Origin: Ginglymostoma cirratum
Lineage: Eukaryota
Direction of reading: 5' to 3'
NCBI GenBank assembly: GCA_024137785.1
Contig: JAHRHZ010000002.1
Location: forward strand, 14,053,250-14,117,249
Length of the DNA: 64,000 nt
The first letter of the stretch is position 1. Every line of letters starts with the position of its first letter. The translations under genes were made by a program, and so were the position numbers. Under the pieces are notes generated by a model, which worked only from the letters and a program-made list of their open reading frames with translations, did no database searches and was not told the DNA's origin. Below are positions 6,607-47,515 of the stretch, in pieces.

Positions 6607-6923
6607 GAGATAACAAGGTGTAGATCTGGATGAACACAGCAGGCCAAGCAGCATCATGGGAGCAGGAAAGCTTGAAATTTCGGGCCTAGACCCTTCATCA
6701 GAAATGCAGGTTTGTCCGGAGGGAGGAGGGTAACTTCTTCAGGGTAGGCATCCGTAGAAGAGGCGTCGCCGTGGGGTTAAAATTGTTTCAGAAATAATAA
6801 GAACTGCAGATGCTGGAGAATCTGAGATAACAAGGTGTAGAGCTGGATGAGCATAGCAGGCCAGGCAGCATCATAGGAGCAGGAAGCCTGACGTTTTGGG
6901 CCAGGACCCTTCTTCAGAAAATG
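6607..6923 (-). mobile_element. Tandem pLTR-spacer-pLTR miniature Penelope derivative
   Basis: Direct repeats gagataacaaggtgtaga...cttca(t/g)cagaaa(a)tg at about 6607-6706 and 6825-6923, each ending in a decayed hammerhead motif on the minus strand. Confidence 0.85.
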
Positions 6924-7565
6924 ACGGATTCATTATGGAATCCTTGTAAAGACTAAAGAACGCCCTCGCTGTATTGGTTAGTGTGGTAATTGAAAAGTGA
7001 TAAAAAGCCAGTTGCAGCTGTTTGTCAATTCTAGTAAACAAATTTTCTGGAAAAGAGCGGTGACGTGCTGTATACGAAAAAAAGTAATATTTTGTTAATC
7101 TGTGCATAATTTGAAATAACTATGATATTAATTCGTTTCTTCAATCCTGTGCATAATGTGAAATGACTAACATACTTTTAAAATTAGGCTTCAACTACGA
7201 ATTGCTCAGATATTTTCACTAGCTACTTGTGTCCCAATGCTCTTAAATGCACTTTTGTTCCAACCTATCCCATTCTCAATTTTCATCTAATATTATTTCA
7301 AATCTACCCGAATATCATTCAATTCTGCATTTTTCTCATCATTACTCACCTCCTCCTTTTATCTGATGAATAACATCTGAGGGCAATCATTCAGAAGATA
7401 AAAAAAAATAAGTACAGATTTTATGAGGAAGTAGAAGTTTAAATTTCAAGACAATGGATTGGAAGCTCACAAATTCATAAGCATTAATATGCTAATTAAT
7501 GTCAGCTTTCGTGACAACATAATTTCCGTGACACATCTTGCTTCAGTGTTTTCCATTATCACGGA

Positions 7566-7600
<35 letters not shown>

Positions 7601-7624
7601 TACACACAAACATATACACACACA
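7566..7624. repeat. Compound microsatellite (CT)n(CA)n
   Basis: Direct reading: tctctctctctctcacacacacacac... Confidence 0.95.
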
Positions 7625-8099
7625 AATTGTCGAGATGGATAGAACCCATCGAACTTTTTCCAGTTTCAAAGAAAAGGGTATTTTTTTTTGTAAGTAGTTG
7701 CACAATGTGGAGAGCCTTGAGCATGTGTGACTTCGTTATTGTCATTGTATTTCAGGTATGTTAAGATGTTCATTGACTTAATCTAGCAAGCATTGTTGTT
7801 TCTACAGATCATATTTCCTATTTCATAGGAATCAACTAATCATTAGCTGGGCCAGAACAATAATTGGGAGACATATACTTATCGTGTACTAATTTGGAAA
7901 CGATAATTTAGCTATGCCTGTATTTGTTTGTTTAGCTTGCCTGCACCATGGAGAACCGCATTGGCTTTTTCTAATTCTGGAAGAAAATAAAAGTTAAGAT
8001 GCTTACAAAGTCTCAGATGTGATCATGCTCAAAATGCATATTTTCTCCTTTTCTTCCAGACAGTTGAGCAATTAGGTTGAACAAATCAAATTCATTCTT

Positions 8100-10700: not shown

Positions 10701-11501
10701 CTTCCGGGCCAGAAGAAAGACAATTACATTCAATTTTGGCAAAGGGACAATCTAACTATTTAAAACGGGAGCCTTCGGAATATTTGCAAAGTAACTCAGA
10801 TGGATTGATGAAGACAACATTAAAGTCAAGCTTTTAGATTTTTTTGAACTAAAACTACTAGAACCACTATTTTGAATAATGTACCTTGTCGGGGGAAAAA
10901 ATACAAACTGGACAGCATAATACCATTCACTTTGAATTGGAAGTACCGGCTCCATTGTTGAACTCGATGAGAAATATTGATTCATAATAAATGAGTATTC
11001 AATTAATTGTGAACTGGTACACTTTTTTTCAGCGTGAGCAATTTCACACATTCACAGAAGCACAGAACTTGAATGGCGCATGAAGAAGTAGTTTTACCCA
11101 GCATTTCTGTTTTGTTTCTTCAGATGGATATCATTACATCAAGCCAGTCACTTGTGTTTTCTCAGCACCCTTGTACATTACCTTCATTTTAATAGTCACC
11201 TAATATTATCTTCAAAACCCCTATTCAAACTGCCTCTACCACACTTGCAGGCAGCCCATACCCTAATTATTCTCTGAGTGAAAACTTTTTTTCACAGCCC
11301 ATATTATCGTGGTTTCTTTGTCAGACCATCCAAAATCTATGCCTCCTCACTCATTCATTTTGCAAACTGGAACTGTTTCTCCCTATTTACTCTATCTTCT
11401 GTAAGGTTTCCTTCTCCTATTTTCTCTGCAAGTCGAACAGTCCCAACTTCTGCCATCGATCCTGACATCTGAAGTTCCTCACCCATGGAGACATTCTTTT
11501 A

Positions 11502-12064
11502 AGATAACAAGCATGGGGCTGGATGAACACAGCAGGTCAAGCAGCATCATAGGAGCAGGAAAACTNNNNNNNNNNNNNNNNNNNNNNNNNNNNNNNNNNN
11601 NNNNNNNNNNNNNNNNNNNNNNNNNNNNNNNNNNNNNNNNNNNNNNNNNNNNNNNNNNNNNNNNNNNNNNNNNNNNNNNNNNNNNNNNNNNNNNNNNNNN
11701 NNNNNNNNNNNNNNNNNNNNNNNNNNNNNNNNNNNNNNNNNNNNNNNNNNNNNNNNNNNNNNNNNNNNNNNNNNNNNNNNNNNNNNNNNNNNNNNNNNNN
11801 NNNNNNNNNNNNNNNNNNNNNNNNNNNNNNNNNNNNNNNNNNNNNNNNNNNNNNNNNNNNNNNNNNNNNNNNNNNNNNNNNNNNNNNNNNNNNNNNNNNN
11901 NNNNNNNNNNNNNNNNNNNNNNNNNNNNNNNNNNNNNNNNNNNNNNNNNNNNNNNNNNNNNNNNNAGTTTTCCTGCTCCTATGATGCTGCTTGACCTGCT
12001 GTGTTCATCCAGCCCCATGCTTGTTATCTCGGATTCTCCAGCATCCGCAGTACCTTTTATCTCT
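11502..12064. mobile_element. Head-to-head palindromic pLTR insertion with 16-bp flanking direct repeat
   Basis: Perfect 64-bp inverted arms 11502-11565 and 11966-12029; gagacattcttttaag at 11488-11503 and 12065-12080. Confidence 0.85.
11566..11965. other. Assembly gap (400 N)
   Basis: Run of N. Confidence 1.
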
Positions 12065-14834
12065 GAGACATTCTTTTAAGGCACTTTCGAAAATGTTACC
12101 ACTCTTCCTCTAATTTGATGGTCATTACAATGCACAAAACTCCAAGTGAATTCAGACAAGTGACTTACATATATTTAAGTTTACTTTCCCAATCATATAC
12201 TCTATGCCATCTTACTATAGCTGGGAAAGCTGTGTGCTTTATCGACTGCTGTTACCACCTATCATTTCAACTTGAATGATCTGTGGACAAAGACACATAG
12301 GTTATTTTGCTCCTGTGTGCCATTCAGAATTGTGCCCCATTTTCTGGTCCTTAAATATGAGTTGCCTAGTAAAATGCATCATTTAAGTTTCATTCACCCT
12401 CTATCCGTCTACTCCACCAACTTTATTGGGCTCTTTTGGAGTTTTATCCAATTGTCCTCACTGTTGATAAACCTCACGTCATCTGCAAAAATTTAAACTG
12501 TCCTAGCACAGCACTCTTTCTCTCTTTTTCACTTTTTCAGTGCAAAATACCCGAAAAGTCGTTGAACATTGCTCTGATTCCTGTCAACGTACTGTTCATC
12601 CACATGGATATGGTTCATTTTATTTCTCAACTTTTATCTTACTCACAATTCTTTTGAATACCATTGTATCAAATATCTTCTTAAAGTCCATATATGCCAC
12701 ACATGCATCATTACCCTCATCGAACACTTCGGTTAACTTTTCAACAAACTCCAGTAAGTTATATATTATTTTTGGTTAGAAATCAATGCTTAATCTTCAT
12801 AAATAAAATGCATTTCTTAATGTAACGTCTGACTATATTTCATGAACAGCGACTAAAATTAATGATTAAAGTATTCTTCCAACTGATGTTATGATTCTTG
12901 CGATTTGATTAATCTGTTTTGCCAATTCCTCAGCCACAAACAATTATTTTTAAATGTATTATGTACTTAATCGATAAAACATGTAGCAATGGCTGCATGA
13001 GTGATTAATCCACTGTCCTAAGTGCAGGTTACCTAGACTTCCAAGCTATCAGCTTTGTCACATATTGCATGATTGAATTGTCAAACAACCAAACTATCAT
13101 TGCCTGTAATTCTGCTGAAGAGAATCAAATGGCGATGGAAAGTATGATCAGCCCTTAGTTTTCTGATAGCTGTGTTGCTTCAATGAGACACCAAAAGTTA
13201 AATTTGAAGTTCTGGAACATATCTATTTTCATGATATTCACCGTGAGGCACAAATGCAAAACCATAGCAAATGAGACTAGAGAGTTATACAGACCTCCTT
13301 AAACAGAAATAGGCCTTTCCATCCATTATACATATGATTATGCTTTATACACTAAAGTAGGCATTTCCAACCCTTTCTAACTTAGCCATGCCTTTCATAT
13401 TTTTATGTAATATTATCGATCATAAATCTTGTCATTTAATGAATTTAGGCATTGTATTCAAATGATGCAGGGAGATGACGTTCCCAAAACTGCCTATATG
13501 TGGAATGTTGGCTTAAATACCTTTTATATTTGCTTGCTTGACTTGCATACGTGTATGACAACTTGTTGGACTTTGTAATAAAGAGAAAAATAAAACATCT
13601 AAAAGGTAATTTTTCGTTACATTGACACCATTTTTTCCTGATGTTCTCTTTGAAATTCATTAAATTGAAGACGTTTTTAAACAAAATTGGAAATATTTAT
13701 GAAGGAGAAACTCATTGTCTATTTCATTGTAAGTTTTTTTTTTTAATTTATCATATGATTTATGCTACAGCAGAAAGAAAGAGGTAACATCCAGAAGAGG
13801 ACAAGTAAGAGCTGTGCATTGCAAATTGATGTTAACTGTGCAACCTCTTATTTTAAGAATACACCCTCTTGTCCTAGACTCTCCCATTAGGGCAAGCAAT
13901 GTTTACACTTCCACCCCGTCACGCCCCCAGTTAAGATTTACATTGCAATACAACTCCTTGCAGTACAAATATGCAAGGTAACTAATGCTGATTACAATGG
14001 AAGGTCATGTTATACTATTGACAGTCTCACAATTTATGTGACACTATCGTAAAATCTAATGAATCATTACGAAAGTTCAGCTTTTATTAAGGTGAGAAGT
14101 AGATGCGAATATTTTATTGGTTTTACGTTCTGCATTATGTTTTAACTGACCATGATTTATGCATGACAAAGTTTTACATTACAGCTCTAGAAAACAGGAT
14201 TCTATTTTTTGAACTAAAAAGCACAATAAGAAGAATTATTCAACAATTGACTGTACTTTAATCTCACTATTTGATTATTCATAAGTGGTTGCTTTAATAC
14301 TGAGGCAGATATAATGGTATGGAGTTGGCCATTGACAAATTTGCATTTTCTAACATAATTAACTATTACAAGATCAAATTAATTTGCCTGGCATGAAAGT
14401 GATCAGAACGACCTTCCACTTTGAAAAATAGCAGTTTACTAGTTATTGTCATACAAAGACACTGCAAAGCAATAGATACACTCATTCACTCAACTTTTCC
14501 CAATAAAAGTGAAGAATCTCTGCATCCTCCTTGCAGTTCATATTCCTACCCCAGCTATGTGAAGAATTCCCTTTGCTCAGCGGGTGATGGAAATTTGGAA
14601 CTCACAGCAGGAATGATTGAATGAAAACAAAACGTTAGTAATGTTTAAGCGAACTTTAATTTTTTGCTTGCATTCAAGAATATAAAATGTGATCAGTGTG
14701 GTCAAATTTTCTTTGAGTGAAGTCGATACAGTTAACAGATTTTTCTCCACCTGTTTTGTAAACGTTCAAAGAACGAAAGACTTAACTTGTCTCATATTCC
14801 GTAGCCTTTTACATGCATAACAACATTCCAGATA

Positions 14835-14925: not shown

Positions 14926-14939
14926 ACAAGAACAATAAC

Positions 14940-17959: not shown

Positions 17960-20900
17960 TGTCTCCTGTTACCACATCTATAATGAATATTGAATGGGCA
18001 GATTGAAGCAAAGGCAAACTAATCCACCCACTAGGAGGGAGGGCTTCAGATATGTGGATCGTTGGGATATCTTCTCGTGCAGGTGACACCAATAAACTGA
18101 AGATGAATTACACCTAAACTGGAAAGGCACCAATATCATGGCACGAGGGGTTGCTAGTAATATTCAGAGGATTTAAGCTAAGATGGCAAGCGATAGAGGA
18201 AGTGGCAGCGGAGAAGAGTGGGTGAGTGTGGAAACCAGGGCACCAGGCCAGCAAGTAACATGACTGAGGAGGAATCACAGACTAAGGCCAGTAAGGCTGA
18301 GAGGAAGTAAAGACATGGAAAAGTTACTGTACGAGGCAGGGTTGGCTGTCTAAGATGTATTGGTTATAATGCAATTAAAATGACAGGTAAGACAGATGAC
18401 ATTAGGGCTTGGATTAGTACATATAACTATGAGGCTGTTGTTATTAGAGAGACTGATTCAGTTGATTCAGATAGGAGTAAGACTTGTCGTTTTACAATCA
18501 TGGATTTACGTGTTTCTGGCGAGATAGAAACAATATAAAAGAGGTGGGGGCATTATGTTGATGCGAATAGATATTATCGCACCTGTAATGATGGAGAACA
18601 GGTTGGAGGACTCATACACCGAGGCCATGTTGGTGGAACTCATGAACAGGCATGTTGCAAGCACTTTATTGGGCCTGTGCGTCTGGCCTCCCAATAGCCA
18701 GCAGATGAAAGAAGAACAGATGTGTGGATATATTATGGAAAAATGTAGAAATAACAACGTTGGTATTCTAAGCTATATTATCTTGTATTTCACTTAGCAC
18801 CAGAGACTTGAGTGAGAGTGGGGGTGGGGCGAAGTGAGGAAGTTGTTAGGTGTGTCCATGATGAGGCCATGCTAGACTTGACATTGGGAAATGAGCCTGG
18901 CCCGGTGATTGAAGTTTCACTGGGGGAGCATTTCAGGAAACATCATTCTGATGTTTTGTTACTAAACTATAAGAATATGAATAATCTTCTGGTGAAAGTA
19001 CTAAATTGGAGGAAGTCTCCCTACTGCCATATTAGGCAGGAATTGAAGAATGTAGATTAGGAGTGGCTGTTTGAGCATAAGTCCCCATCTGGTATGTGGC
19101 TATCTGTTAAAAAAAAGAATAGTGATTAGAGATCAGGACTAGCATGTTCCTATGAAAATGAGGCATAATGATAGCAAAATTCTGGAAATGTTATGAGAAA
19201 TTGAGAGTTGTGTCAAAAAGAAAAAGAGTAATAAATAAGTTGTAGGAAATTGAAGACTTATTGAACACAAGGAGAATATGAAGGTAGCAGGAAAGAACTC
19301 AACCAAAAAATGAGTAAATCTAAAATGCACACAATTAAGGAAAATTTCAAGGCTGTTTTATACATAGGATATAATAGGAGCAAAAGGGTACTTAAGGAAA
19401 AGGTAGGTCCACTCATAAATAAGAGCTAATGCATGGGTCGAGCAAAGGACATGGAGGAGGATGCTAATGAAAACTTCGCATCGACAATCACAAAGGAGAA
19501 GAACACAGTTGTAGTGAGATTTGGGATAGGCATGTCAATACTTAAAATTAAAATAAGAGGTTTTGGATGTTTTGGAAAACATTAAGGTAGATAACTTCTC
19601 GCAACCTGATGTGAACTATGCCAGAACGCTGAGGGAGACAGATGAGTAAATTGCTGTGGTCTTACATAAGATTTTCTTGTCCTCTTTAGTCAAAGGAGTG
19701 ATCACAGAGGACTGCAGATTAGCCAATGTTGCTCGTTTGTTCGAGAAGGGCAATAGGGACAATATAAGAAATTGCAGTCTGGTATACCTCATGACAGCAG
19801 TAAGGAAAATATTGGAAAAGATTACTAGGGATAGGATTAATCATATTTGGCAAAAAAAAAGGTGGACGTTTAGAGATAGGAAGTGTGGATTTGTGTGGTG
19901 AAAATGGTGTGTCACAACATTGTTTGTGTTTTCTTTTGAGAGAATAATAAAAATGATTGATGAGTGCAGGTACTGTCTGCAGGGACAGCAGAAAGGTCTT
20001 TGACAGGGTCCCTCATGGAATTCTAATACAAAAGGTGAAGTCACATGCAATCTACGTTGGGCTGGCATAATGATTACAGAAATGCTCAGTCACAGAAGGC
20101 AGAGAGTAACAATGGACGAGTATACTACAGAATGGCGATCTGTGACAAGAGGTATTCCAGAGGGATCAGAGATATGTATGATTTGCAGGAGGAGATTGTC
20201 TGTGACCTGATTAATACATTTGCAAACAACACACAGATTGTGGCCGCTGAGGGTAGTGAGGAGGATTGCCAGAATATACAGCAGGATATAGATAGGCTAG
20301 AGACTTTGGATGACAAATGAAAGATGGAAATTAATGTGGTCAAATGAGAACTGATACATTTTGGGAGATCTAATGCAGGACTGCTGTTTACAGTAAATGA
20401 CAGTATCTCTTGTAGCCTCAACATACAGTGGTATCTAGAAGTACAGATCCACAGTTGACTGCAAGTGGCAACACTAGTGAATACGATTATCAAGAAGGCA
20501 TATGTCATGCTTGCCTTCATCAGTCGAAGCATACAGTACAAACATTGTTATTGCATTTTGAAGCTGCCTCTACACTAGTTGTGCCACAAAGGTAGCAAGA
20601 ACTACAGATGCTGGATTTATGAATTTCTGAAGAAGGGTCGCGACCTGCTCCTCTGATGCTGTCTGCCTGCTGTGTTCCTCCAGCTTCCCAATTTGTTATC
20701 TTGGTTATACCACAAATGCAATATTCTGTTAGTTATGGTCGTCACACAGTCAGAATGATGTTGCGGCTTTGGCTAGGGGACAGAAACGATTTAGCAGGAT
20801 TTGTCTTCTTTGGAGCGTGTTAGCTATGCGGAGAGATGTGACAAACTTGGCCTGTTTACACTTGAACATCGAAGAATGAGGAGCTACTTGATGGATATTT

Positions 20901-28854: not shown

Positions 28855-28950
28855 GGCAGTTCTGATGAAACATCAACACTGCTTTCTTCCCACAGATGCT
28901 ACCTGTGCTGCTAAACTTAACCAGCAATTGCTGTTTTTGATTCAGAAAGC
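28855..28950 (+). mobile_element. Degenerate pLTR tail
   Basis: gttctgatgaaacatcaac...cacagatgctacctg (stem II deleted). Confidence 0.6.
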
Positions 28951-33029: not shown

Positions 33030-33680
33030 ATTAACCTCATCACATTTCCGATCTCCCCACAACAGTCTTCAAGTTGTAGGCCCTCAAACAATTACAGCCC
33101 ACTTCTAATTTGTCACCAAAACCCACCAAAAATGACTACACAGGCGGACTAATTGTTTTGGCCTGTTCCTCTCCCACTAAATTTAACTCATAACTTGTCT
33201 CCATTTTTGTCTCCCATTGTCCACTTCCTTCTCACTTACATCCATGATTCTTCTCGTGCTTTACGTCACGTTCAGAACTACCAAATCATGGCCAGCAGTC
33301 ACTTTCTCTGCACCATGGACGTTCAATCCCTTTCCACATCTTTCTCCCAACCTGATGCTTTCAGGGTGCTCTACTGCTTCCAGTAAAGGAAAGCTCAATG
33401 ATTCCCATCCACCTCCGCTCTCCTCCACCTGCTAGATTTCGTCCTCAGTTTGAACAACCCGTCCTTTAACTTCTCTGAATTTTTTCAGCTTAAAGGATAT
33501 ATTTCACGAGTATTTGCAGTGACCCCAGGTGGACTACATTTCTAGCGCCAATCGTTCTCTGGATCCTTCCCACAACCCCTGATCTTCTATATCGATGGCG
33601 TCATCATTAACGCTGATATTTTTCCCCCACAGATGCTGGTAGACCTAATAAGTTTAATAGCAATTCGTTTTTGTTTGGAA
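33030..33680 (+). mobile_element. Old Penelope-like element, RT part (continuation of 29250-30020)
   Basis: ORF 33153..33386 FLCTMDVQSLSTS (PLE RT MDVxSLYT); tatatcgatggc (YIDG, from YIDD) at about 33588; pLTR tail 33620-33680. Confidence 0.85.
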
Positions 33681-35880
33681 CACAAATGTATCTTCATTAC
33701 ATGTTTTTCTAGCACACATAAATAGTAGTGGTAGCATTAAACAAAACATCCTGACTCTTGAGCAAGAATAGTTAAGTGCAAGTTATTTTTTCTGAAGTGC
33801 AGTTGCATGAACATTCAAATGTACATTGCATCTTTTTGATATTTCCTCCTTGTGCTATACGCTGTATTAGAGTTGGGAATCATAAAACGTGGTAGTGAAA
33901 TCTTTGGTTGGTATTTAATCCTGACCTGTGAAATGAATTGCGTTTAATTTGAATGGTCTAAGTAAAAGTCTTGTAATGATAACATCCTGGCAAATGTATT
34001 GAACGTTGTTTCGAACGTATTACTCAATAAAACATATCTGGGGATTGTTGTGACGAAATAACAATCCTGATTTGATTCATCACTTGACGTCTATAGATGG
34101 GAGATAATGAATTGAGTACGGCCTGCCGATTCATTATTGACTTTTTGTTCTACAATGTTAAAAAAAAGTTAGTTTTTCATTTACTTTGTTAAAACATTTG
34201 CGATTGGAGGCATAAGGAATGTAGCGAAGGAAATTGTGGTGTTGTATAGTCAGAGAAGGCCTATATTATGGCATGCTCATAGAACAAACCAGTGACCTAG
34301 ATAGTACAATAACTTTATGAGCATTTTGATAGTAATAAAAGTTTAGGCTGTCTTGAACCAAAACACTTCAGTTTAAAGAGATTAAAGGCGGTAATGCCCA
34401 AAATCCAAAATTGGGTCGGTAGATTATTTTGAGTGACATGAGAATGCACACGCGACTTAAGAAACTAAAGGCATGATGTTCATCAAGAATATTTTGTTCG
34501 TCATTCGGAGATTACCAACAGGTTGCCATTTTGAGAGCGATTATTAGATTTGTGGCGAATTTTGGCATTAATGAGTACTTGAATAGTTTGGCCAAACAAA
34601 AATACAGAAATTAAAACAATCCATAATATCTTACGTGTATTTTTTTCAAACAGGTCTGTTTCTGTAAGAGAACATTATCCCATTAAAATACTCGTCTGTT
34701 TGGACAATTTTGAAAAACTCAGTAATTCCCGTGCACACACGAACTGCGATTGTTCCTGGCCTTTAAGGTCTACGTTTCCTTCCTGTATCACTTCCCATAC
34801 TGTTGTGGGACTGTGCAAGGTACGCCGAGGCGTCTAAACATTTCTGCTTTTTGGAGCAATGATCTTACGACTGAACCTACTATCTGCTACTTAGTCAGCA
34901 ATTATTTTGCGTTGGAATCTGTCTTGGTAAATGTTAATTCTTTACAGAAAATGGATTTAGCTACCAATTACAATTAATTAAAGGTGCTATGCAAATCAGT
35001 AAAAATATACTCCTTTAATGAAACTGGTCGTCCAGAGACCCTATTATGAAATATTTCGTTGCCTAATTTTGCTTTTATAATCACATAAAGTGTTTTGGTA
35101 TGACACATACCATGCAAATATTATTCACACATTATTCTTCTTCATTTAGTGACTTACAACAGTCCTTTCAATGTGCCTGTATTTAAAATCCTGCCTGACC
35201 CCACTTACAGCTGAGCAGCTAACTATTCCACTTGGATAACAGTGAATCAAGCGTAAGTTGTGAGGGAAAGGAAATGTCCTCTTTGTTGCGCAACAACGTC
35301 AATAAAAACACGATTGCATGCTGTTTGTGTCATTTTGAAAGGACACTTTAAAAAATTGCTCATTTGATAAGTTCGGGTACTGCAAACACAGAATATTGAA
35401 AAATACTTATTGAAAGTGTAGAACGGTATCAAATATTTCGAAGCTGCCATAATATTGTTTTAGACAGTAAGTGATTGTCAACTGTGAGGCACGAATATCT
35501 TTGTATGTACCACAGTAAGATAGACAGTGAGATCCACAAGTGTTGGTATTATTTCTTTGCAAAACTGAAATATACATATGTTTGCTTCGAAGATTTGTGT
35601 TTTAATGCATTAATATGTAACAACGGGAATTATGAGTAAGTACGAATTAGAGGAGCTATTGTTATAAAAGGCTTAAGAGAGCCACAATTATGTGCTTCTA
35701 AATGGTTATTGTCACCCAGAAGTACACAAATAGCACTACAATTTTCGAGTATAGTCTTTTTTTACATATCTGATGGCATTAAAATACTTAAAAATAACTT
35801 GCGTTTAATGTTCTTTTAAAAAAGAAAAAAATCTGAATTTCAACTGGTCATATTAGTCTGTGCAAAAAAAGAGTTTTTGG

Positions 35881-36120
35881 TAAAACACAGTGTGGAGCTG
35901 GAGGAACACAGCAGGCCACGAGGCATCAGAGGAGCCGGAATGCTGACGTTTCGGGTCCGGACCCTTCTCTAGAAATGCTTCAGAATTCCATTTCTGAAGA
36001 AGGGTTCCGAGCCAAAACGTCAGCATTCCTGCTCCTCTAATGCTGCCTGGCCTGCTGTGCTCCTCCAGCTCCACACTGTGTTATCTCAGACTCCAGCATC
36101 CGCAGTTCTTACTATCTCTG
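35881..36120. mobile_element. Head-to-head palindromic pLTR insertion
   Basis: Inverted arms about 35881-35977 and 35989-36085, 11-nt spacer; flanks aaagagtttt at 35868-35877 and 36121-36130. Confidence 0.9.
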
Positions 36121-39100
36121 AAAGAGTTTTGATGGTATGATGGAAGTTTCTACAGTAGTCCTGAAGGTCTGAAATAATGTTCCAAATCCAATATGGTGAC
36201 TTTATTTTTGGCACTTTAACTTCACTTACTCAGTCATTTTTCTGAATTACACGATATGGAAATGGATAAAGATTGAATATTTACATTGGGGAGGAATATG
36301 TGTGGCTTTGCCACATAACGTAACACTGTGTTGCTCGTCCATCCAATTCCCACTTTAACCCATTTGCAGGTAATTATATTAGGTTTTGTAAAGTATCAGT
36401 TAGCCTGTCCACTCTAAAATGCCTATACTTCTCTAGAGCAATGAGGATCAATTAAGATTTTGGCTCCACCCAGGCACAATAATACATCCAGCGGATGGAG
36501 ACAGGAGAAAATAAATCTGCCCACTATTTTCTATTCTGACGCGAAATGTCTAGAGAAGGAAGTGACTCATAATTCTGGATAATCTGTGCCAAATGGAGGG
36601 CCCAAAATCAAGCTGTGACACCCGACTCTATCCTATGCTTGTTTCACTCAAAGCGGCTTTCCTTCCTTTTATCTTAGGTTTCACACTATTCCAACCTCAG
36701 AAGGTGGTGAAAAATCACTCAATGTAATTAAAATGCCTACCGTGGCAAAAGTAACTGCAAAAAGGGGACACAATCTCAGCACCAGGATGTCTTTGCTTAG
36801 CATAGAGATTAATTTAGAGCCTACAGCTCCTGCAGAGCACCGAGGATGTCGCAACCTCTGAGCCGAGTTCAAGTACCGATGATTTTGGAGATGTGCAGGT
36901 TGATTGCAAGTGAAAATGTGCCTGTGTTGTATTTCGTTTTGCAATATGTGGCCTAGTGCTTCATTATTGGGTGCAGTTTAAGAAAAAATGAGGTACATCT
37001 CTGATAGAATCACAGGATACTTGTAGCTAGGTGTAAATTATAGCTGGAACACAGGATAAGACATCAAAGTGCTAAATGACACAGTAGGCTGGACACACCA
37101 TTTGATAAACCTTTGCAAATTTTTCAGGTAATGTATTTTTCGTATCCAGACTAGCACGCGTAATGATGTGACGCTGAGGATTTATGAGATAAATGTAGCA
37201 TAACTAAGAGTTGCAGTTTTTGTTTAGTATTTACTTCAAACGTGTGCTTTTTTCAATGAAAACGATAGGGTCAGCAGAGATGAGAATTTACACATAGTGG
37301 ACAAAGAGACAGAAAATTGGTTCATAGCAGTATAGAACTGCATGAATTCAATAGACCCCAATTGGTGAATCCTTGTTTGATAAGTGAGACTTGAATAGCA
37401 ACATTTTGAAAATAACTTTTGGACATTTGAGCGGTGAAAAAAAAAGGTTTTATAGAGATGCAAGTTACACCACTTTTTCACAACTTGATCGAGGAGGCAC
37501 CTTGAGAAATATATTTTCACTAACTTCAATTATTCAGTTTTAATTTCAGTTATTGACAAGAGTCTGTTAAATTAGCGTAACATATCTTTTTCTGTTTTGA
37601 GACGTGACAGAATAAGAGAGAGCTACCAGTGCGTAACTCAGATGGAAAAAATTACATCGATATCATCAATCAAATAGTAGTAAGGTTTCAGATTATTTTT
37701 AAAGCTCCATATGAACAGATATTAATCTCCTTGCTACGTAACCCAGAAATGTTGATAATCGAATAAAAAATATTCTCATTAAACTGAGTGGCCATGGGAG
37801 GAAAATGAAGACCACTGTGAATTTCTTTTTCTCTTTCTCTTTCTCTTTCTTGGAGAGATGCTTTCAGTGTGATGATCCAAAGTTTAGAATCATGGTAGTT
37901 TCTATCACTTCTTAGGCATGGATGGAAACGTAAAATCACGCATTTAAAGTGTTTTGACAAAGAAAGTAGGCATTCAACTGAAAAGTTCACAATAAAGCGT
38001 CAAAATTCAGGACGATATTGGCAGGCTACGAAAAGAGCAGACATATTCCATTTGCAATATATTGTAATCAATCTACCTTCTATTACAATAAAAAGACATT
38101 GAAAGGTGTATGATATTATTCGTTAGTATTTTGAATATGTCCAAATTGTTTGGGAATGAGATAAATAAAGTTCAGGCAATTATTTTTCTTGAGGAAATGT
38201 GGGAGTTTTAAAAAAAGCAAGTCGATCTTTCTCCCCACTACTTTCTAAGCATTATGGCTGTCTCTCGCGAAACAAAAAGTTAGTTCTTTGGATCAAATAT
38301 GACTTCAATGTTACGTTAATATGAAATCCAGGATGGAGCAATTAATCTCTTGCCGGATGCTAATTTTCAGGATTAAAAGTTAAGCGTGTTGTTTTGATAA
38401 AATTGTCAATGAGAATAATTAGAATGAGAGGTAATCTTAGTGAAACATGGAATAATCTGGAAATTTGTGGATTCTTCATTCTCTGTGATGAGACAGGAAA
38501 TGAGGGCACAATTTCAAGAAGTCACTTGTTTATATTGGACGTAGGAACGATTTATTTCTCCAATGTCTCCAGAATTAAACACAGGCAATAAAATCTCTCG
38601 ATTGATATCTAACGCTTATACCTTCAACTCATGAGTCAGTAGGCCTCTACTTCAAACAACAATGAAAAGAAACACTGATTGTGGCGATTGTGTAAAGTGT
38701 GCTGTACGTTATGTTTTACTATGAACTGTATCACTTCTGTATTCCCAATAGTAATACAGCTATTTTATATCCTAAAAGAAATAAATGCTGGACTGGACTG
38801 TATTAACTATCGGTATGATCAAAACAGAGAATGTGCATGGAAGACACCATGCTCACCAACATAGAAGTTGCTCACATGTCTCCAACACAAATTTATATCA
38901 TTGATGAGCGATTAAAATTTTGTTCCTCATTGAGGATACTTTCTTTCAGATGGGTGGATTGTCAATGAACAAACCAGTAGATGTTGAACTAGTGTAGGAT
39001 TCAAGACATGCTGTGTGTCATTGTATACAACAGCTTCTTATACTATCGTGAGGCCTAATGTCAATGCCCAGTATGTCTTTGAGAATCCATCGTGCCAAAG

Positions 39101-40776
39101 ACGATACACTGAAACACGTACCAGCAGATGAAGGCAAAAAAAAAAAATAGATTGCTGTTCCAAACTCAGGGCGGAATGCAGGAGAGTCAATGGAAGCAGA
39201 GCTCAGCAATCACATAAATAACATATCCAAATCAAGCTCTGTAGTTTTGCCTGATCAAAACTGTTAATAACTACTTAAAAGTTTCAGAGGTGAGCAGCTT
39301 CCAGAAACATCCCACCTTTTGTGTGGGGCAATCTATGTATATGCACACAAAATAATATGCTGATTTGAGTAGCGACCTTCTTCCAGAGTGCTTAGTGTTT
39401 CATTCACCCTAGTCCCCCCTTGAGATTTCCACAATTAATAATGACATTTGTTTGCAAAATTAGTTCCTTGAGTTGATATGAACAAACGGCTGAAAACAAT
39501 TGATAATGCGAACTTTAATTGTTGTGAAAAGGTTTCCACAATAGTACTGTGAGGATATGCTCCAGAATTTTCTGCTTACATAGCCAAGAAATGTCTGCAA
39601 AGATTAAAACAATTTCTGCAAAGATACAACCTTAAAACCTCTTCTGCATTGGGTAAAATAGTCCGACCATGTACTGTTTCCAAAACAAAAACAGGCGGAA
39701 TTCAATATGACTAATTACTGGTACACCAATCTATTGTAGATTGTCAGCAAAGGGGAGGAGATCTGTGCCCGGCTGATGGAATGTATCATCTGTGACTAAT
39801 TTTACAAAATATATTCCACAGCTCTCTGAGACTTCCTTCGCAGCACGTCACAAATATGTAACGTGTGCTACCTAATAAGAAAAGAAAGGCCACAAATGCC
39901 GAAGAGTCTTACTGAATAGAAGTTATATTCCAAGCCATACAGCATACTGAAATTGATCTGGAAATAATTTACTACATTATGACGTGAAATACTTGGAAAT
40001 TTATTTTCACTTTAATCAGCGCTGTAGCTGTGTTTCCTCCAAAACCAACCATTTCTTTATAAGCCAAACACAGCAGTTAAAATGGGTCAAGAAAATAGCT
40101 GACTACTTATGCCGCCAGGGCAATTCAGAACGAGCAACAACTGTTGGCTGAGGCATTGACACCTGTATCTGATGAATATTTTGTTATTTTTGTAATAAAG
40201 TTATTGACCAGAATGAATACACTAATGAGCACTTATTGTGAAATAGACTTTTCTTGCAGGAGGTGACGACACGTATATAATAATTTTAAGTTGCTTAAAT
40301 TGATAAATCAAAAGCAGTAATAGAAGCTGTATGCATTGCATGGAGGAAACAGAATGAATGCGTTTTTATTTTGAAGAAACGTCTCCTGACAATGTATTGG
40401 ATTTTACTGGACATGAGAGACATAATTACCAACGAAATGTATCAGTTAACATGAAAATCCATGAGTACTTGAAGAACGTATACCTTTTGGAAGAAGTGGA
40501 TAGTTCTTCTGATTGTGACTTATTGGGCTGCAACCTTGAGACCCATCAAATACATCGTGTGCGCATGTCTGTAGTAACTGAAATATGTTATCTGTGAAAG
40601 TAACATCTCACTGTTCATCGAGGTTTGGATTTGATTACATGGAAATTTCTTGATGCAGTCGTCCTGGCAAAGAAGCATGCTTCATACTTTTCACAAAGTT
40701 TAAGAGAATAGCTACCAGGTTGATTGCAAGACAAATCACAACTCGGCTAATGAAGACAACAATTATACTCTATTTT

Positions 40777-40901
40777 CAGAGATAGCAAGAACTGCAGATG
40801 CCGGAGTCAAAGAGAACACGGCATGGAACTGGAAGATCACAGCAGACCAAGCTAGGAGCAGGAAAACTGACGTTTCTGGTCGGGACCTTTCTTTGGAAAA
40901 T
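40777..40901 (-). mobile_element. Solo pLTR copy
   Basis: agatagcaagaactgcagatgc...ggagcaggaaaactgacgtttctggtcgggacc, same family as 46820-46953. Confidence 0.85.
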
Positions 40902-41543
40902 AGTGTATATTCAGTTGCAGAACGTGTCATCCATTTTCTTACCTGTATCCTTAACACGTTTCCTCAGTGTTTCGATTTCTAAAAAAAAGGTACAAGTACC
41001 GTATGTAAATGCACGAGAAGTTTCAAGGAAAACTCATGGCGTGTAACCAACTTGAAGGAAATCTATGCTGATTGCTCAGACATAAACAATGACATATGGA
41101 AACAATGGCATGAAAGGCTGACGTCAAAGTAAATCATGTTAGCAACAAAACGATGATAACAGTTCAACATGTAATGATACATAGCAACAGATATTCACAT
41201 AATTTCTGAAGATAATGCAGCAAATAAACGAGCAAGGTCATAAAAAAGCAATAGATCCAAAGTAAAATGAACATCAAGGCGCAGGTTGAACGAAAAAAAA
41301 CCAATGTGAACACAGGCATTTTATTCTCAGAACGGGTTATGCAATCTCAGCACTATTTTTAGTTACAGTGGTAGACTACTGGACTAACATTTCCAATAAA
41401 GTGCATCTACACCACAAAATTTCGTCATTCGAGATGCACAGCCTTTTAACAGCAGGTACCTTGTTAAAAAGAAGACTGACCTTTTCTATTCACCGACACC
41501 TACAGTAGAGATTCAAGTCTGGAAGCTGCTTTTATGTATATTG

Positions 41544-41785
41544 AACAAAACAAAGTTGCTGGAAAAAGCTCAGCAGATCTGGCAGCATCTGTGAAGATAA
41601 AAAACCCGACTTAACATTTAGAGTCTGGTGACCCTTTTCTGAGACAGTACACTGAGGAAGGGTCACTGGACGCGAAACGTTAACTCTGTTTTTCTTCTTC
41701 ACAGATGCTGCCAGACCTGCTGAGCTTTTCCAGCAACTTTTGTTTTTGTTCCTGATTTACAGCTTCCGCAGTTCTTTCGGTTTTT
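41544..41785. mobile_element. Head-to-head palindromic pLTR insertion (second pLTR family)
   Basis: Arms about 41544-41642 and 41652-41751; flanks tttatgtatattgaac (41531-41546) / tttatataaattgaac (41783-41798). Confidence 0.9.
41652..41681 (+). ncRNA. Minimal hammerhead ribozyme-like motif
   Basis: CTGAGGA-A-GGGTC-ACTG-GACGC-GAAAC-GTT; core boxes intact, one stem II mismatch. Confidence 0.5.
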
Positions 41786-44460
41786 ATATAAATTGAACCT
41801 GAACTGTAATTAAGAGGAGTGGCCACTCCTAAACTTCCAGGCAGTCCTGAAACTTCAGGCATTCAACAATATCAATCAGCATTTGAGCCATATAAAAGTT
41901 AAATTATTGTGGTGTGGTTGTCATGGATAATCCGGCAGACGTCAATGGACGTATGGTACAGTCGATGAATTACATTTCATTCCATAGAATAGCGGTTAGA
42001 AGGGGTCACAATCTCGCCAGCCTTAAGATCAGCAGCAACCTCTTCTTGAAAGAGCAGTTGTAGATCACAACAGTCCCAATGCAGCCACGTGAAGCACTGG
42101 CTCACAGAATTCATTGTTTTTGTAGGCTTCTGTGCGGCAAGCTTTCAGCCTGAGACTGGAGATACCTGCCGACAATGACATGTTTTGAGGCTAAATAGGA
42201 CTGAAAAAATATTTTTTCGTGTAATCTTATTCGTGCGTATTTTTAAAGAATCAAAAGTTATTTTCCAGACGCAGCACGCCAGCAACTTAATTTGATCATG
42301 GTGCATAGACTGAAATGGCTGGTTAGCACTAAATTAAGATGTAGCTTCAGATTAAAACAGTTTTATACTGCTTCCCTACTACTGGACACTACACTTTTGC
42401 ATGGTAATGCAACCTTTTATTTGGTTTGTCAATAAATTTATGTTCTTCACATCTGAACTAATTATCTTAGTGAATGACAATGCCTGTTGCTCCGGCTAGA
42501 CTTTGAACCAAACTATTTTACACAGAAGCATCTGGAAACTTGCTTCCAGATTGAATATACAGAGTTTTGGAACAATATACACTTCATTGTCCGGTGTCTT
42601 AAGAAAATTTGCAGGATGAGTACAGGCATGAAGGACTTCAAAAACAAGCTTTGTTCTAGTAGTTTCTATTTCTCTCTGTCTGCGCCTCTCTATCACCTTT
42701 TGTGTTTCTCCCTCCCTGTTGTTGAAGATGACTAAACTGGAAAAAGATTTATTCAATGAGTGGAAATCATTGGTAGGATTAATGACGGTATTCAAAGTAA
42801 GAATAATTTAAGTAAGATGTCCCCCAAATATTCAGAGGAACACAATTGATGTTTTGAAGATTTTTTACGCTTGCTGGTTGAAGGCAGCTCTCATTTTAAA
42901 GTGCCGCAAGGACACAAAAACATTTGTACATGATTGTGTTCAACCGTTCAATAATTTGCAAAGAAATTTCGTGACAATTCTAAGGAATTACACTTCCCGG
43001 GCCACAGTGTTTTGAATAATTATTGTTTGCAACTGGACATCTGTTTTTTTTTTGTCCTGGAATCAAGTAAACATTCAGAAAGCTAACCAACAGTCTGTAT
43101 CTCCTGAAGATCTGTAGTCCTGATAACATCACCACGACCAGTCGTCATTTCTGGAACTTCAAAGTATCCAGAAAACATGTATCTCCACCGCTGGCTGGGT
43201 AAAAACAGAATCTGAAGTCGCCAGCAGGTATTGAGGCCACGGGATATTGAAGCTTTCGCAAAAAAAAAGTCGTCAAACGAATATACATTGCAAGCACAGC
43301 TAATGTTGGATTGAAGCTACTAATGGACATGAAAACGATCACATCCTGGACCAGGGAAAATTTCTGGACTTGCCCCCTAGTTCTGAATTCTGTAATCTGG
43401 AGGGTAATTCTCTGAATTTTTCCTGAAATTACCACATAGTACTTCATTTGGTGAAATAGTGGGCGGTGGAGACATCATCTGGCGTACTTAAGAGATCTGC
43501 ATCATTTCGAAACAAGACAGTTGCAAAGATAAAAATTTTCAGAAGGTAACTATTAGTTCAACACCACCCTTGTTGAATTGACATCAAAAGAGATATGCAT
43601 TTCTCATATATACTAGTTATAGCCTATGTAGTTTTATTTTCACTTTTTCCTGGCTTGTGAAAATCTGTTTGGAACAGAAAGAGCATTTCAGGTTTGTAAG
43701 TGACGTTTTTGTTCAGGAAAAGTGATAATTAAAGCTACCGTGAACACATGATTCGTTCATAGCTGCTCAACGTAATTTGATTTTCCTTTGCCTTGAAAAG
43801 ATAACTAATAAGTATTAAAGAGATACAATGCAGGCTATTAATTCACTCCTGCTTGATTTGACCTTCAGGACATATTCGCAAAACATTCTGGTTTACTTAA
43901 CATGCGTGCACTTCTAAAAATATTAAATATTTTTTCTGAGAGATGTTCAGATATTTACCAAAGTTGGTGAAAGTTGGTCAGCAACATTATTGATTAGAAT
44001 TATCTACATTTGATCCGTGAATAAACTGCACCTTGTGGGAGATACAGATTCTGAATATTATTTACCTGAATCTTTCACGAGAAGTTTATTTTCTGTTCAA
44101 TGGAAAACGTTAATACATAGGGATGCCTCTCATCACTATATAATAACACGGACTCTCAGAGAAGATAATTAATTAGGTTTCGCTGACACAATCAAAATAA
44201 GAAGAGATACAAAACATTTCCCAAAACGCTCCCAAAATCCCCCACGCACATGCAGGTATTGTGAGAACCTATACGAATTTTCAAATACCGAATTCTGAAG
44301 TACACATTATTATTGCTTCTTTCATTCCCCACAGGAAAAGAAAATGCAAGCATGAAATTCTTTGCATGGCTTTGAGTGTTAGCCGTATCTATTTACTCAT
44401 CTAAACGAGGTATGATCTAAATTAATGACTTGTTGCTCGGAATCAATTTGTCTTTCAGAA

Positions 44461-44610
44461 CCCTCTTCCCCTCCCCCATTTCTGATGAAGGGTCTAGGCC
44501 CGAAACGTCAAGTTTTCCTTCTCCTATGATGCTGCTTGACCTGCTGTGATCATCCAGCCCCATGCTTGTTGTCTCGGATTCTCCAGCATCTGCAGTACCT
44601 TTTATCTCTG
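44461..44610 (+). mobile_element. Solo pLTR copy, young subfamily
   Basis: 44511-44610 differs from 11966-12065 at only a few positions. Confidence 0.9.
44479..44512 (+). ncRNA. Minimal type I hammerhead ribozyme motif (intact core)
   Basis: CTGATGA (44482-44488), A, GGGT-CTAG-GCCC stem II, GAAA (44502-44505), C-GTC; short possible stem I TTT/AAG. Confidence 0.65.
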
Positions 44611-46819
44611 AATTAATAAATATGTTGCCGTATTACAATTTTACTGCAGTTTTGTCCCTCTCTTTGACTCAACATCTGGCATACGCTTGTTAACAGTGCT
44701 CCAAGTTTAATTAAAACAAACCGAAAACAGTTTTCAGTGTTTTTTTTTCTCTCTGTGCTGTTTAAAGTTCTACGATGTTTTAATAATAAATGCTGCTCCA
44801 AAAAGAAAACATTGCCCTTATCGCATGAGCTACCGGACAAAGAAAGGAAAATAGTTCTATGTACCAGCATCTTCAAGCTTTTGTTTCAGATCATTCGAAT
44901 CTGCAAGGGATAAGAAAAATAAACTTATAGTTCTTCTATTTTGTCTTTCTGGTTCCATTGTGATATTTTTAGATCCAAATCCTTTGACTATGGTGTACAA
45001 ATATGAAATGGCGTCTAAAACCTGAATATATTTTGCGAAATCTTATCCATCGAATTCAGTTGTATGGGTGCTGCTCTTGTTTGAGGATCAGAGATTATAG
45101 CCTGTTTTAACATGCGGAGGACTTCCACTTTGACAACGCTCAGAGCGATAAACGATTTTGCAGTTGAGTATAATAGCAAGTCTGCTGAGCTGACTTACTA
45201 GTAATTCCTAAACATTATTTATGTTTGCACCTCGTATTAGTCTTAAATTGGCCGTTTCTTGTTGACAGCTTAGATTAAACTAGGCGAGTGAATCATTCTG
45301 TCCAGTTTATTCAATTCATATCATTTTCAACTAATCTCGTGTACTTTATGCTGCTATTTGGGGCATAATTTATCCTTCTAAACCTATTGTTCTTATGACC
45401 TCAATTGGAATTTTTAAAAAAGTGTTGCTTCACATTTAGAAAGAAAAAAAGTTTTCAAAATCCTTTTGTCTTCCTGTATGAGATCCCTCCTTAAAAGATT
45501 TGTTTTTAAATTTTGAACAAGCTTCCTAAATTCGTTCAATTTGATTCGAAGTCACCTGTTTCCAAACTCTATAGGAAATCAAATCTGCACGTTGTGCACT
45601 CATTAAGGCACCCCAAATTGAATTATAAGCACTCTTTACAGTTTACTTCTGTAAAGAGAGTTATAAATCAAATAACTGGTTGACTTTGCTGCAAAATTAT
45701 TTTGTAGGCAATCATGCAATGATATTTAGATAGATTTTCAGTTTTTCTAAAGCAATTTTTCCACGTAAAATATATGTGTAGTTGGAAATTCGAAAAGATA
45801 TACTCAAATTAAATTCACTTGTAAAGTGTATTGCAACGAATATTCATTTCTGCTGATGTAATTATTACATAATGGCAACTGTGTAACGCAAAAAAAGCGA
45901 ATAAAAATGTCCACATTCCATAGATCACAAGTTCAATTTCCAGCATGTACAGTCTTTTTTTCTTCTTTTGTTATTCCTACCCAATGAGGTGAGCTTGTTT
46001 ATCATAAGTCAGGTATGTGCTTCAAAAGATTAAAATATGCTTTGAGTAGTGATCAAAGAACGAAGATTTTGAAAGCAGAAATTCCCCTCTGTACTAGGTT
46101 ATTGCAGTCTGAACTTTTTGAAACATGTTATAGTGACTCAAATGCAGTTCCAATTTTCTGTGTGTGCCTTACGTATTTTTTAGACATTCATTTGTTTTAC
46201 ACCAATGGATGGAGAATTCGGTGTGTATCTCCTGCCATAATAATTTAATGGTTGCTCCACAATTGAATCACTTACACAATGTTTTTCTCAGGACGGTCAG
46301 AGTAAGATTTGTATGCGCTTTATTTGGGCTATTCACGGAATAATACTGATGAAATATAAGACCGAAATAAAGCCTAGAATATATTAGAGAAGGGAGTTTA
46401 TGGGAATCTGGAGAACAGACAGTTAAAACATGGTTATCTTAATCTCTTGGTCTGTGCGGTAGTGTGAGCCATTCCTCATGAGTGCCCATGATGAGCAAAT
46501 GGTCTCGTGACATCAACACATCAGGCTATGCCTGACAGTAGAGAGGCAGAAAGGTGATTCTGCTCCTGTAATAGTATCATCGATGCATTGCTCTGCTTTG
46601 AAGAAAACTGAATGCTCATTAAAGGCAGGTATTTTAATTCTTATGCCCCCTTTAGTTTCTTCAAGTCAGCCGCACACAAATTTTTCAAATACACTACCAT
46701 GAATTTCGGAAAGGCCTCCTATTATGACCCTGTGAAGATCACCCACCAACACATTTCCAAAGTATATTTTAGCCTGACTCAAGTTGCAAATATCTTAATT
46801 CACAATCATTATAACAAAC

Positions 46820-46953
46820 AGAGATAGTAGGAACTGCCGATGCTGGAGAATCTGAGATAACAAGGTGTAGAGCTGGACGAACACAGCAGGCCAAGCAGCA
46901 TCAGAGGAGGGGGAAGGCTGACGTTTCGGGTCGAGATCCTTCTTCAGAAAATG
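46820..46953 (-). mobile_element. Solo pLTR copy with 12-bp TSD
   Basis: ataacaaacaga (46811-46822) / atgacaaacaga (46954-46965). Confidence 0.9.
46920..46947 (-). ncRNA. Minimal hammerhead ribozyme-like motif
   Basis: Minus strand CTGAAGA-A-GGATC-TC-GACCC-GAAAC-GTC. Confidence 0.55.
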
Positions 46954-47515
46954 ATGACAAACAGATGTTTTTCATAGGACCAAAGTGTAATTGGGCCCCT
47001 TTGTATTTTCAACTGCGTTCAGAGACCACACTTCAAAATACTCGAGCATACTTAGCTTTTGCTTCATCAATTTCTGGAGCTCCGAGGGTGACATGGAAGA
47101 TTAGAATTCATAGGGCAGAGGAGGGATTCCCATGGATCTTTTGCATGTTGATGAACATAAAATAATTTGTATTATTATTCCTTAGTCTATATACTTAAAA
47201 TAAATGTTCGAAGTACCAGCGAAAAAAAATTACTGTGTTTCTATTATTGAGAAGCTAAAAGATTATTTTAGATGCGGGATGTCGTAAAGAGAGAATGTTG
47301 AATACTTCTGGTGATGACATTATTTATTCAAGAATTGACAGCCTGCTTGTCAAGCTGTTCACTTTACTTTCAGTTGAATTAGTAGGTACATTTTTCCTAA
47401 GAAATAAAATTTTCTTTGCATGTATTTTGTCGATGACAAAGGAAGAATGTCTTCGCACAAAGGCAAAATAATCATCTGGGAATACATCAAAAAGAGTGCT
47501 TCTAATTTCTTGCAA

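Follow-up and report, generated by a model that had tools for sequence, protein, structure and literature searches.

The eight short repeats spread over the window (the whole 64,000-nt stretch of DNA analysed) are most probably dispersed, largely decayed insertions of the hammerhead-bearing terminal repeat (pseudo-LTR, pLTR) of an endonuclease-positive (EN+) Penelope-like element (PLE), likely made by the element's own protein with internal priming and run-off at the RNA 5' end. They are likely to be stubs of the PLE end module and not a separate mobile family. Taken as a family they are unremarkable remains of PLEs that can help in the annotation of genomes of this kind. Their value is that of a natural experiment: the 5' ends of all copies bear on the in vivo role of PLE hammerheads, on the use of cleaved RNA as template and on the start of PLE transcription.

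Insertions and their anatomy

Related repeat units were present at all eight positions of the original prediction (6607, 11502, 20591, 35881, 40777, 41544, 44461 and 46820). Twelve unit-sized nhmmer matches fell across these insertions (E values 2e-37 to 6e-13), and nhmmer added two older copies (28867-28949 and 1384-1307). The density in the 64-kb window is approximately one insertion per 7 kb, or 2.6% of the sequence. The copy at 20591 is 113 bp, below the expected 120-320 bp, and a 400-N assembly gap hides the length and core of the copy at 11502. The features are as follows.

Insertion A, 6607..6921, minus strand: partial tandem, period 216
A, 6921-6788: pLTR with tail; 6787-6708: PLE ORF start; 6706-6607: second pLTR, tail-less
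A, 6751, minus strand: ATG of the PLE ORF start
A, 6708..6751, minus strand: first 15 codons of the PLE ORF, resembling PLE protein N-termini
A, 6599-6608 / 6919-6928: direct repeat, 9/10 match
Unit A1, 6889..6917, minus strand: damaged hammerhead motif, CUGA at 6917, predicted cut between 6890 and 6889
Insertion B, 11502..12065: head-to-head palindrome spanning the assembly gap (N 11566-11965); arms identical (64/64), tail on right arm only
B, 11488-11503 / 12065-12080: exact 16-bp direct repeat
Insertion C, 20591..20703: 113 bp; lone inverted tail (about 20591-20620, minus strand), then tail-less pLTR (plus strand) with a deletion through the hammerhead motif
C, 20578-20590 / 20704-20716: direct repeat, 11/13 match
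Insertion D, 35881..36120: head-to-head palindrome, short inverted arm and direct arm with tail
D, 35868-35877 / 36121-36130: exact 10-bp direct repeat
Insertion E, 40777..40900, minus strand: one decayed pLTR with tail (nhmmer)
E, 40765-40779 / 40900-40914: possible decayed direct repeat, borderline, 12/15 match
Insertion F, 41544..41785: head-to-head palindrome, second subfamily; direct arm with intact core bases at 41652-41681
F, 41530-41546 / 41782-41798: direct repeat, 15/17 match
Insertion G, 44461..44610, plus strand: pLTR with tail, about 17 C-rich bases upstream, no TSD
G, 44482-44509: the sole strictly intact minimal hammerhead motif
Insertion H, 46820..46953, minus strand: single pLTR with tail; intact core, one stem II mismatch
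H, 46808-46822 / 46951-46965: direct repeat, 13/15 match
Older copy I, 28860..28950, plus strand: second subfamily, stem II deleted (nhmmer E 4.5e-5)
Older pLTR J, 1307..1384, minus strand: behind a C-rich stretch (nhmmer E 3.4e-6)

Two subfamilies can be distinguished in the window; the direct arm of insertion F is approximately 65-70% alike to the remaining copies. Both older copies sit behind pyrimidine-rich stretches. Inverted parts occur in four of the eight insertions (B, C, D and F), and A is a partial tandem. Measured from CUGA, the units have two 3' ends, at +94 and +129, which define an optional tail of 35 nt. The palindromes B, D and F carry this tail on one arm only, and in C the inverted tail stands alone.

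Flanking direct repeats (TSDs) were scored as length minus three times the number of mismatches, and 600 random site pairs served as background. The scores were 16 for B, 11 for F, 10 for D, 9 for H, 7 for A and C, 6 for E and 4 for G, while none of the random pairs reached 10, 0.5% reached 9, 1.5% reached 7 and 6.3% reached 6. The predicted flanking repeats were thus commoner than chance, six of the eight insertions exceeding the background; E was borderline and G had none. The TSDs were rich in AT (73%, compared with 62% for the window).

The family thus shows inverted arms, TSDs, a pair of alternative 3' ends separated by 35 nt and, in copy A, a run-on into a PLE ORF start; an optional tail, an inverted truncated copy or partial tandem, and short TSDs at AT-rich targets are the marks by which EN+ PLEs are recognised. 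In the accessible portions of PMC3846280 and PMC8557442, EN+ PLE insertion units likewise have a pLTR of about 130-220 bp, an optional 30-40 bp tail on one end, an adjacent inverted truncated copy, head-to-head palindromes, partial tandems, TSDs and solo pLTRs. The present family differs in that most insertions consist of the pLTR only, have TSDs of 10-17 bp and begin at one common 5' position, and in that the ORF does not start within the pLTR but some 37 nt beyond the tail. Tailed pLTRs in solo and inverted form, with TSDs of 8-10 bp, have been described (PMC3846280), and each of the features seen here (tail, inverted arms, TSDs, solo copies) is already known from the PLE literature. The question whether the solo or palindromic TSD-bearing form was new is largely answered, since solo and opposite-strand paired minimal hammerheads have been reported as truncated PLEs (PMC4209133, as far as its accessible text goes).

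Connection with the Penelope-like ORF

The repeats had been described as devoid of ORFs. This was wrong for the copy at 6607, in which 15 codons from the start of a PLE ORF are present (6751-6708), beginning approximately 37 nt after the tail. With a profile of PLE N-termini, which had been anchored after the likeness was noticed, the peptide ranked second among 54,596 six-frame positions; by eye, 8 of 12 residues were identical to the commonest PLE start. The peptide is short, and both BLASTP and a 45-column HMM missed the match. A search with the spacer peptide of copy A gave no match, and no named chondrichthyan N-terminal protein was among the 55 matches. In run X1 of a relative, 53 contigs had loose ends at 6708 (agreement 0.72), and in X1 contigs extending past this position the frame, read by hand, stayed open for ten codons with no stop. 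Judged from the sequence, the terminal repeat appears to adjoin the PLE ORF start in copy A, and the proposed link to PLE terminal repeats holds, copy A running into the ORF start and the frame continuing in the relatives' contigs.

Two decayed pieces of PLE coding sequence lie in the same window:

1568..3172: decayed PLE ORF; pre-RT piece 2055-1568 (minus strand), RT C-terminal part to GIY-YIG region 2079-3172 (plus strand)
33110..33653, plus strand: decayed PLE RT fragment (tblastn E 3e-19)

The first was detected by tblastn with PLE proteins (E down to 2e-17), and pLTR J lies 184 bp downstream of a PLE ORF piece, in the same sense. A pLTR-like match at the end of the second was weak (nhmmer E 0.07). 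Neither the PLE remnant in the window nor 10 short relatives gave a Pfam match. RT and GIY-YIG are present in relatives of the remnant, the nearest named ones being from rays and a bamboo shark, which supports the original prediction's assignment to a shark only indirectly. Only such decayed RT/GIY-YIG remnants, and no intact full-length element, were seen in the window.

The hammerhead motif

The core bases, stem II and palindromic, loopless helix III would together form a minimal type I hammerhead, strictly so in one of the ten visible units. The minimal-hammerhead reading of the original prediction stands, although the motif is mostly decayed: all core bases are kept in three of the ten visible motifs (44482, 46947 and 41652), and one (44482) passed the strict descriptor, with 0.03 expected in shuffles. 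The four stem II sequences quoted there were all found, but the stem is 4 bp long with a loop of 4-6 nt, and compensatory change was absent. In stem II 88.9% of the cells pair. In stem I, which is 2-3 bp long, 52.8% do, and just two pairs are regular.

Metazoan PLE minimal hammerheads (PMC4209133, accessible parts) share with these units the core bases, the extra base between 9 and 10.1, the G10.1-C11.1 pair, the lack of a helix III loop, the palindromic 15.2-16.2, and the occurrence mostly as single motifs with some opposite-strand pairs. They differ in stem II (7-8 bp in Schistosoma, 4 bp here) and in stem I (4-5 bp there, 2-3 bp here). The accessible text and supplements of that paper name no shark.

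The expected covariation was absent from the family alignment: none of eight pairs was altered on both sides in nine sequences, a small and decayed sample, and the observed score was reached by 500 of 500 shuffles. A consensus fold of five copies had a two-sided change in 1 of 22 pairs. The tandem copy A, both motifs of which are damaged, folded no better than shuffles (z 0.65). The Rfam scan that had been proposed as a check reported no hammerhead in the window, only two weak unrelated matches. Excess conservation of the core was not seen (6 of 77 core cells changed, compared with 100 of 870 in the rest of the unit); the core decays at about the same rate as the rest of the unit, and no selection on it was seen. 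The active fold is predicted to lie 6.7 kcal/mol above the minimum for the monomer and, with stem I left out, approximately 20 kcal/mol above it for the dimer. For cleavage, the ribozyme is predicted to need both a partner copy and the help of protein. PLE hammerheads have low activity in vitro (PMC4209133).

Unit ends and the origin of the copies

As predicted, most units begin a few nucleotides upstream of the motif. In seven of the eight visible main-family units the 5' end lies 4-6 nt above CUGA, and none begins at the predicted cut. This end may correspond to a transcription start inside the pLTR; in that case a short run-off product would be expected whenever the first pLTR in the transcript is the one used for priming. 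An Inr-like ACATT is present in a rotifer pLTR (PMC3846280). According to the scheme that we favour, the PLE protein would nick AT-rich DNA at the target, reverse transcription would be primed at one of two internal RNA sites (approximately 95 and 130 nt below the motif), and the enzyme would then run off at the RNA 5' end, whose predicted position is immediately above the motif. The two-site internal priming that would define the tail, on uncleaved RNA, is borrowed from work on the Poseidon element PAc of Anolis carolinensis, in which the tail is likewise set by two internal priming sites, situated about 100-150 nt below the hammerhead, targets are AT-rich and insertion uses uncleaved RNA (PMC11167929, accessible parts). 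The PAc ORF differs in starting at stem II. Inverted arms and partial tandems could result if the cDNA primes itself or the enzyme changes template while the copy is being inserted. A solo copy would not give rise to further copies, since the RNA around the ORF start, the presumed binding site of the protein, is missing from it. Ribozyme cleavage, reported to be dispensable in internally primed PLE insertion (PMC11167929), is predicted to be unnecessary for most of the insertions.

It is somewhat unlikely that the copies, although of the same PLE origin, are truncated long cDNAs primed at the 3' pLTR, whose 5' ends mark no start site but piled up at a pause of the reverse transcriptase in a C-rich run above the motif. 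PLE insertions are often 5'-truncated (PMC8557442; bioRxiv 10.64898/2026.07.22.740005, in the parts available), copy G and the loose-end consensus rows at 6920 run on into C-rich sequence, and the older copies I and J stand behind pyrimidine-rich stretches. However, seven of the eight visible main-family ends lie within 3 nt of one another, and pausing at ribozyme helices would be expected to place the ends on the lower side of the motif and not on the upper side, where they are seen. Some truncation of the ordinary kind also occurs: copy G and some of the relatives' copies continue upstream into C-rich sequence, the summed depth in relatives is highest over the 3' part of the unit and drops in the 5' direction, and among the places in the depth table for relatives there is none where many molecules begin.

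Loose ends in the relatives' contigs pile up at 6824, 6790-6801 and 6920-6921. At least four junctions begin at the predicted cut, 4 of 12 among the junctions listed, and these are a possible trace of cleavage in vivo; for PAc, the authors found no RNA reads that end at the cut (PMC11167929). We tentatively suggest that the genome records both 5' ends of PLE RNA, most stubs beginning at the putative transcription start just upstream of the hammerhead, and a smaller number at the base that follows GUC. The ribozyme, although it has no helix III loop and hardly any stem I, would then be active in germ-line cells, and the 3' cleavage product would serve as template for reverse transcription and insertion. 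If true, genomes would hold evidence that minimal PLE hammerheads work in vivo, and this evidence could be counted across tens of thousands of copies. The literature search, which excluded most subscription journals, Repbase and Dfam, found no report of PLE copies starting at the cut or of this repeat family in sharks.

The original prediction had proposed an independently mobilised ribozyme-SINE or non-LTR retrozyme, in which the hammerhead would cut the transcripts of short masters or tandem monomers, and PLE protein acting in trans would insert the products after their circularisation. Its claim of high copy number is borne out by very many matching contigs in two related species (31,594 and 55,775), and the sharp 5' ends, the 216-nt partial tandem with two motifs in copy A and short tandem junctions in relatives would also fit such a system. 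Metazoan non-LTR retrozymes are similarly non-coding, hammerhead-bearing and related to pLTRs, with dispersed monomers common (PMC7229834, bioRxiv 10.64898/2026.07.22.740005, accessible parts of both); the latter traces their origin to pLTRs and reports them from the only chondrichthyan in its sample. In the same sources their defining features are circular RNA and tandemly arranged units whose hammerheads are complete and as a rule canonical. In the window the unit forms no tandem array, copy A has damage in each of its two motifs, stem I is 2-3 bp, and neither excess core conservation nor covariation was found. Moreover, no tRNA or Rfam head was detected, the insertions have PLE anatomy and end at PLE tail sites instead of monomer borders, and the tandem spacer in copy A is the PLE ORF start. 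Independent mobilisation is therefore not supported and appears improbable. Recombination between the two pLTRs of full-length elements, as for solo LTRs, would yield fixed ends with TSDs and has been proposed for some rotifer solo pLTRs (PMC3846280), but it is very improbable here, since simple recombination does not make the inverted parts of four of the eight insertions or the ORF-start tandem, and the rotifer cases named in the accessible text have no TSDs.

The summed contig depth of run X1, which is not taken as a copy number, was 2e6-1e7 on the unit compared with 14.3 on the flank. In the search of sequencing runs no run contained half of the query words, and no RNA run was among those listed; pattern scans of viral, metagenome and prokaryote collections gave 0 loci. 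One contig of a relative (organism B) extends 27 nt into copy A, less than the 31-nt threshold, and a shared insertion is not claimed. The short tandems in relatives have periods of approximately 241 (X23) and 62 (X1), and may represent a non-autonomous tandem subset.

The repeat family and its hammerhead motif

The family is real. When the window was compared with itself, the units at all eight places named in the original prediction (insertions A to H, starting at 6607, 11502, 20591, 35881, 40777, 41544, 44461 and 46820) were linked to one another. A profile built from 10 units gave 12 unit-sized matches at these places and two older copies, at 28867 and 1384; the family occupies 1,651 bp (2.6%) of the window. 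Turned to motif sense, main-family units are 75-96% alike and begin with CATTT or ATTTT followed by CUGA, the first letters of the hammerhead motif. The 41544 copy represents a second subfamily. The flanking direct repeats (10-17 bp, AT content 73%), which we infer to be TSDs, exceeded a control of 600 random site pairs in six of the eight insertions, whereas that of E was borderline and G had none. The window's only assembly gap (11566-11965) is centred in insertion B, a young perfect palindrome with arms 64/64 identical; such palindromic insertions may break assemblies.

By its sequence the motif is a hammerhead. The best copy combines the core bases with an extra A, forms a stem II of 4 bp and has GAAAC-GUC without a helix III loop. 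The claim that the motif is shared was borne out in part: all core bases are retained in three of the ten visible motifs, but a strict descriptor matched only this best copy in the window (44482-44509; 0.03 matches expected from 100 shuffles), and Rfam detected no hammerhead motif there. In an alignment of nine motifs (copy C, with a deletion through the motif, was excluded and that of B is hidden by the gap) stem II pairing was present in 88.9% and stem I pairing in 52.8% of the cells. The covariation proposed as a check did not appear, no pair being changed on both sides in the nine motifs. Differing cells amounted to 6/77 at core positions versus 100/870 in the rest of the unit, and to 9/42 at CpG versus 97/905 at other positions. 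The differences between copies are neutral decay.

Cleavage of hammerhead dimers is treated in a review (PMC6765202). Further literature includes PMC7229834, on metazoan non-LTR retrozymes, and PMC6155905. The active fold lay well above the predicted minimum both in the monomer (-2.6 vs -9.3) and in the dimer (-13.3, stem I omitted, vs -33.8). In the consensus fold the CUGA region pairs with the short 3' end.

Relation to Penelope-like elements

The unit is tied to Penelope-like elements (PLEs) by three lines: its ends, the ORF start in copy A and nearby PLE ORFs. The features concerned are:

6607-6921, minus strand: copy A, a partial tandem of a pseudo-LTR (pLTR) with tail, a putative PLE ORF start (6751-6708) and a second pLTR
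1568-3172: decayed PLE ORF, with an older pLTR 184 bp downstream in the same sense
33110-33620: decayed PLE ORF

The 3' end of the unit lies at either +94 or +129 from CUGA. The palindromes B, D and F carry the extra 35 nt on a single arm each, and C begins with this piece alone, inverted. Known PLEs likewise have an optional tail and an inverted copy (PMC8557442; PMC3846280), and the tail of the Anolis element is the stretch separating two internal priming sites (PMC11167929). Both main-family 3' ends (6824-6830 and 6788-6795) come after a nearly identical short motif, TATCTC, a candidate marker of these priming sites.

The spacer of copy A contains an ATG at 6751 and 15 codons, and a closely similar peptide starts PLE proteins reached via the window's own ORF remnant. 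Rays and a bamboo shark supply the nearest named relatives of this remnant, indirect support for a cartilaginous-fish host. An N-terminus profile of 18 distinct blocks, from the 35 of 57 proteins having the anchor motif, ranked the spacer 2 of 54,596 positions. Because BLASTP and HMM searches both missed the spacer peptide, and because the profile was constructed after the likeness had been noticed, the case for a PLE ORF start, though good, falls short of conclusive. There are published descriptions of solo and inverted pLTRs that carry a tail and TSD (PMC3846280) and, for many metazoans, of single and opposite-strand paired minimal hammerheads regarded as truncated PLEs (PMC4209133).

The PLE protein would likely bind its own RNA near the ORF start, nick AT-rich DNA and prime at +94 or +129. 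On transcripts starting just above the motif, priming on the first pLTR would yield a run-off copy of 100-135 nt, which would explain the fixed 5' start of the copies; inverted arms and tandems would arise from self-priming and template jumps. The 5' start of the unit resembles an initiator when set against the vertebrate Inr consensus. A rotifer pLTR has been described with an Inr-like ACATT (PMC3846280), and the Penelope promoter sits inside its pLTR (PMC2377424). The Anolis element requires the first 172 nt of its ORF (PMC11167929). Solo stubs end before the matching point and so would be dead ends, unlike tandems such as copy A, which include it. At 6707 a single extra G (sense strand) separates the ORF start of copy A from its second unit, and the inverted arm of D also has a G before CATTT; found in only two of eight, it could be a copied cap.

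The main rival explanation of the 5' end, a pause at the C-rich run, is rather unlikely; it shares the PLE origin with the run-off explanation, and confidence in the two is not additive. Although relatives contain short tandems and one chondrichthyan is reported to have retrozymes derived from pLTRs (bioRxiv 10.64898/2026.07.22.740005), it is improbable that the unit is an independent retrozyme or SINE, as originally proposed: the window showed no tandem array of the unit, no tRNA or Rfam head and no excess conservation or covariation of the motif.

Copies in related species and the predicted cut

Contigs from four of 24 listed sequencing runs (two related organisms; at most 0.12 of words shared in the listed runs) were compared with 6690-7300, and 31,594 contigs of run X1 and 55,775 of run X12 fitted. 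The depth of the ORF start was far below that of the unit, indicating that most of the relatives' copies are without it. Among the 24 rows of loose ends listed (765 further), piles occur at 6920-6921 (5' start), at 6824 (short end) and at 6790-6801, where local mismatches break them and the consensus continues towards the tail end. Upstream of the rows at 6920 the consensus was C-rich but weak (agreement 0.34-0.44) and resembled copy G; some copies thus extend further 5'. At 6708, 53 X1 contigs continue with common sequence, its frame, read by hand, open for ten codons. At least eight junctions (12 listed), and copy A too, leave the ORF start within 6708-6718 or up to 27 letters beyond; this stretch, some 200-235 nt below the motif, may be a third site of priming or jumping.

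The family offers one testable lead, copies beginning at the predicted hammerhead cut, which falls between 6890 and 6889. The junction table for the relatives comprised 12 rows chosen by the software (47 further): five start at 6920-6921, one is unrelated, and six break at 6882 or 6886, positions where the reference departs from the common variant. Followed letter by letter, four of the six end at 6889, one of them with an ambiguity of 1 nt; a fifth ends 2-5 nt before reaching it, and the sixth is not assignable. For four of six at a site fixed beforehand, with 8-20 possible positions, p is 0.003 to 9e-5; for three of six, if two rows are one event, it is 0.03 to 0.002. Although they adjoin the assembly gap, both arms of B likewise end at, or one base past, the base immediately after GUC. 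Several observations count against the lead. None of the eight visible main-family ends in the window lies at the cut, nor do any loose ends among the 24 rows listed (765 further). In the seven opposite-strand joints to the 5' start, the second arm lies at 6834-6885. The table of shared molecule starts for the relatives' contigs was empty, and the Anolis study reports that RNA reads ending at the cut were not found (PMC11167929). We tentatively suggest, with somewhat less than even confidence, that some copies in the relatives begin exactly at the predicted cut as a trace of cleavage. The literature searched, with Repbase, Dfam and most subscription journals outside its scope, yielded no report of PLE copies starting at a hammerhead cut, or of this hammerhead pLTR family in sharks.

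Other features of the window

10753-10826: a SNORD95 match of low significance (E 0.25, with a score well under the gathering threshold), probably due to chance
29730-29883: diverged match to 1647-1794, within the decayed PLE ORF at 1568-3172, and so probably a further piece of a PLE
30223-32217, minus strand: broken non-LTR reverse transcriptase frames (RVT_1 E 9e-16), perhaps of CR1 or L2 type
47516-47645 and 47839-47968: inverted repeat of 130 bp, 119/130 alike and 193 bp apart, unrelated to the hammerhead family
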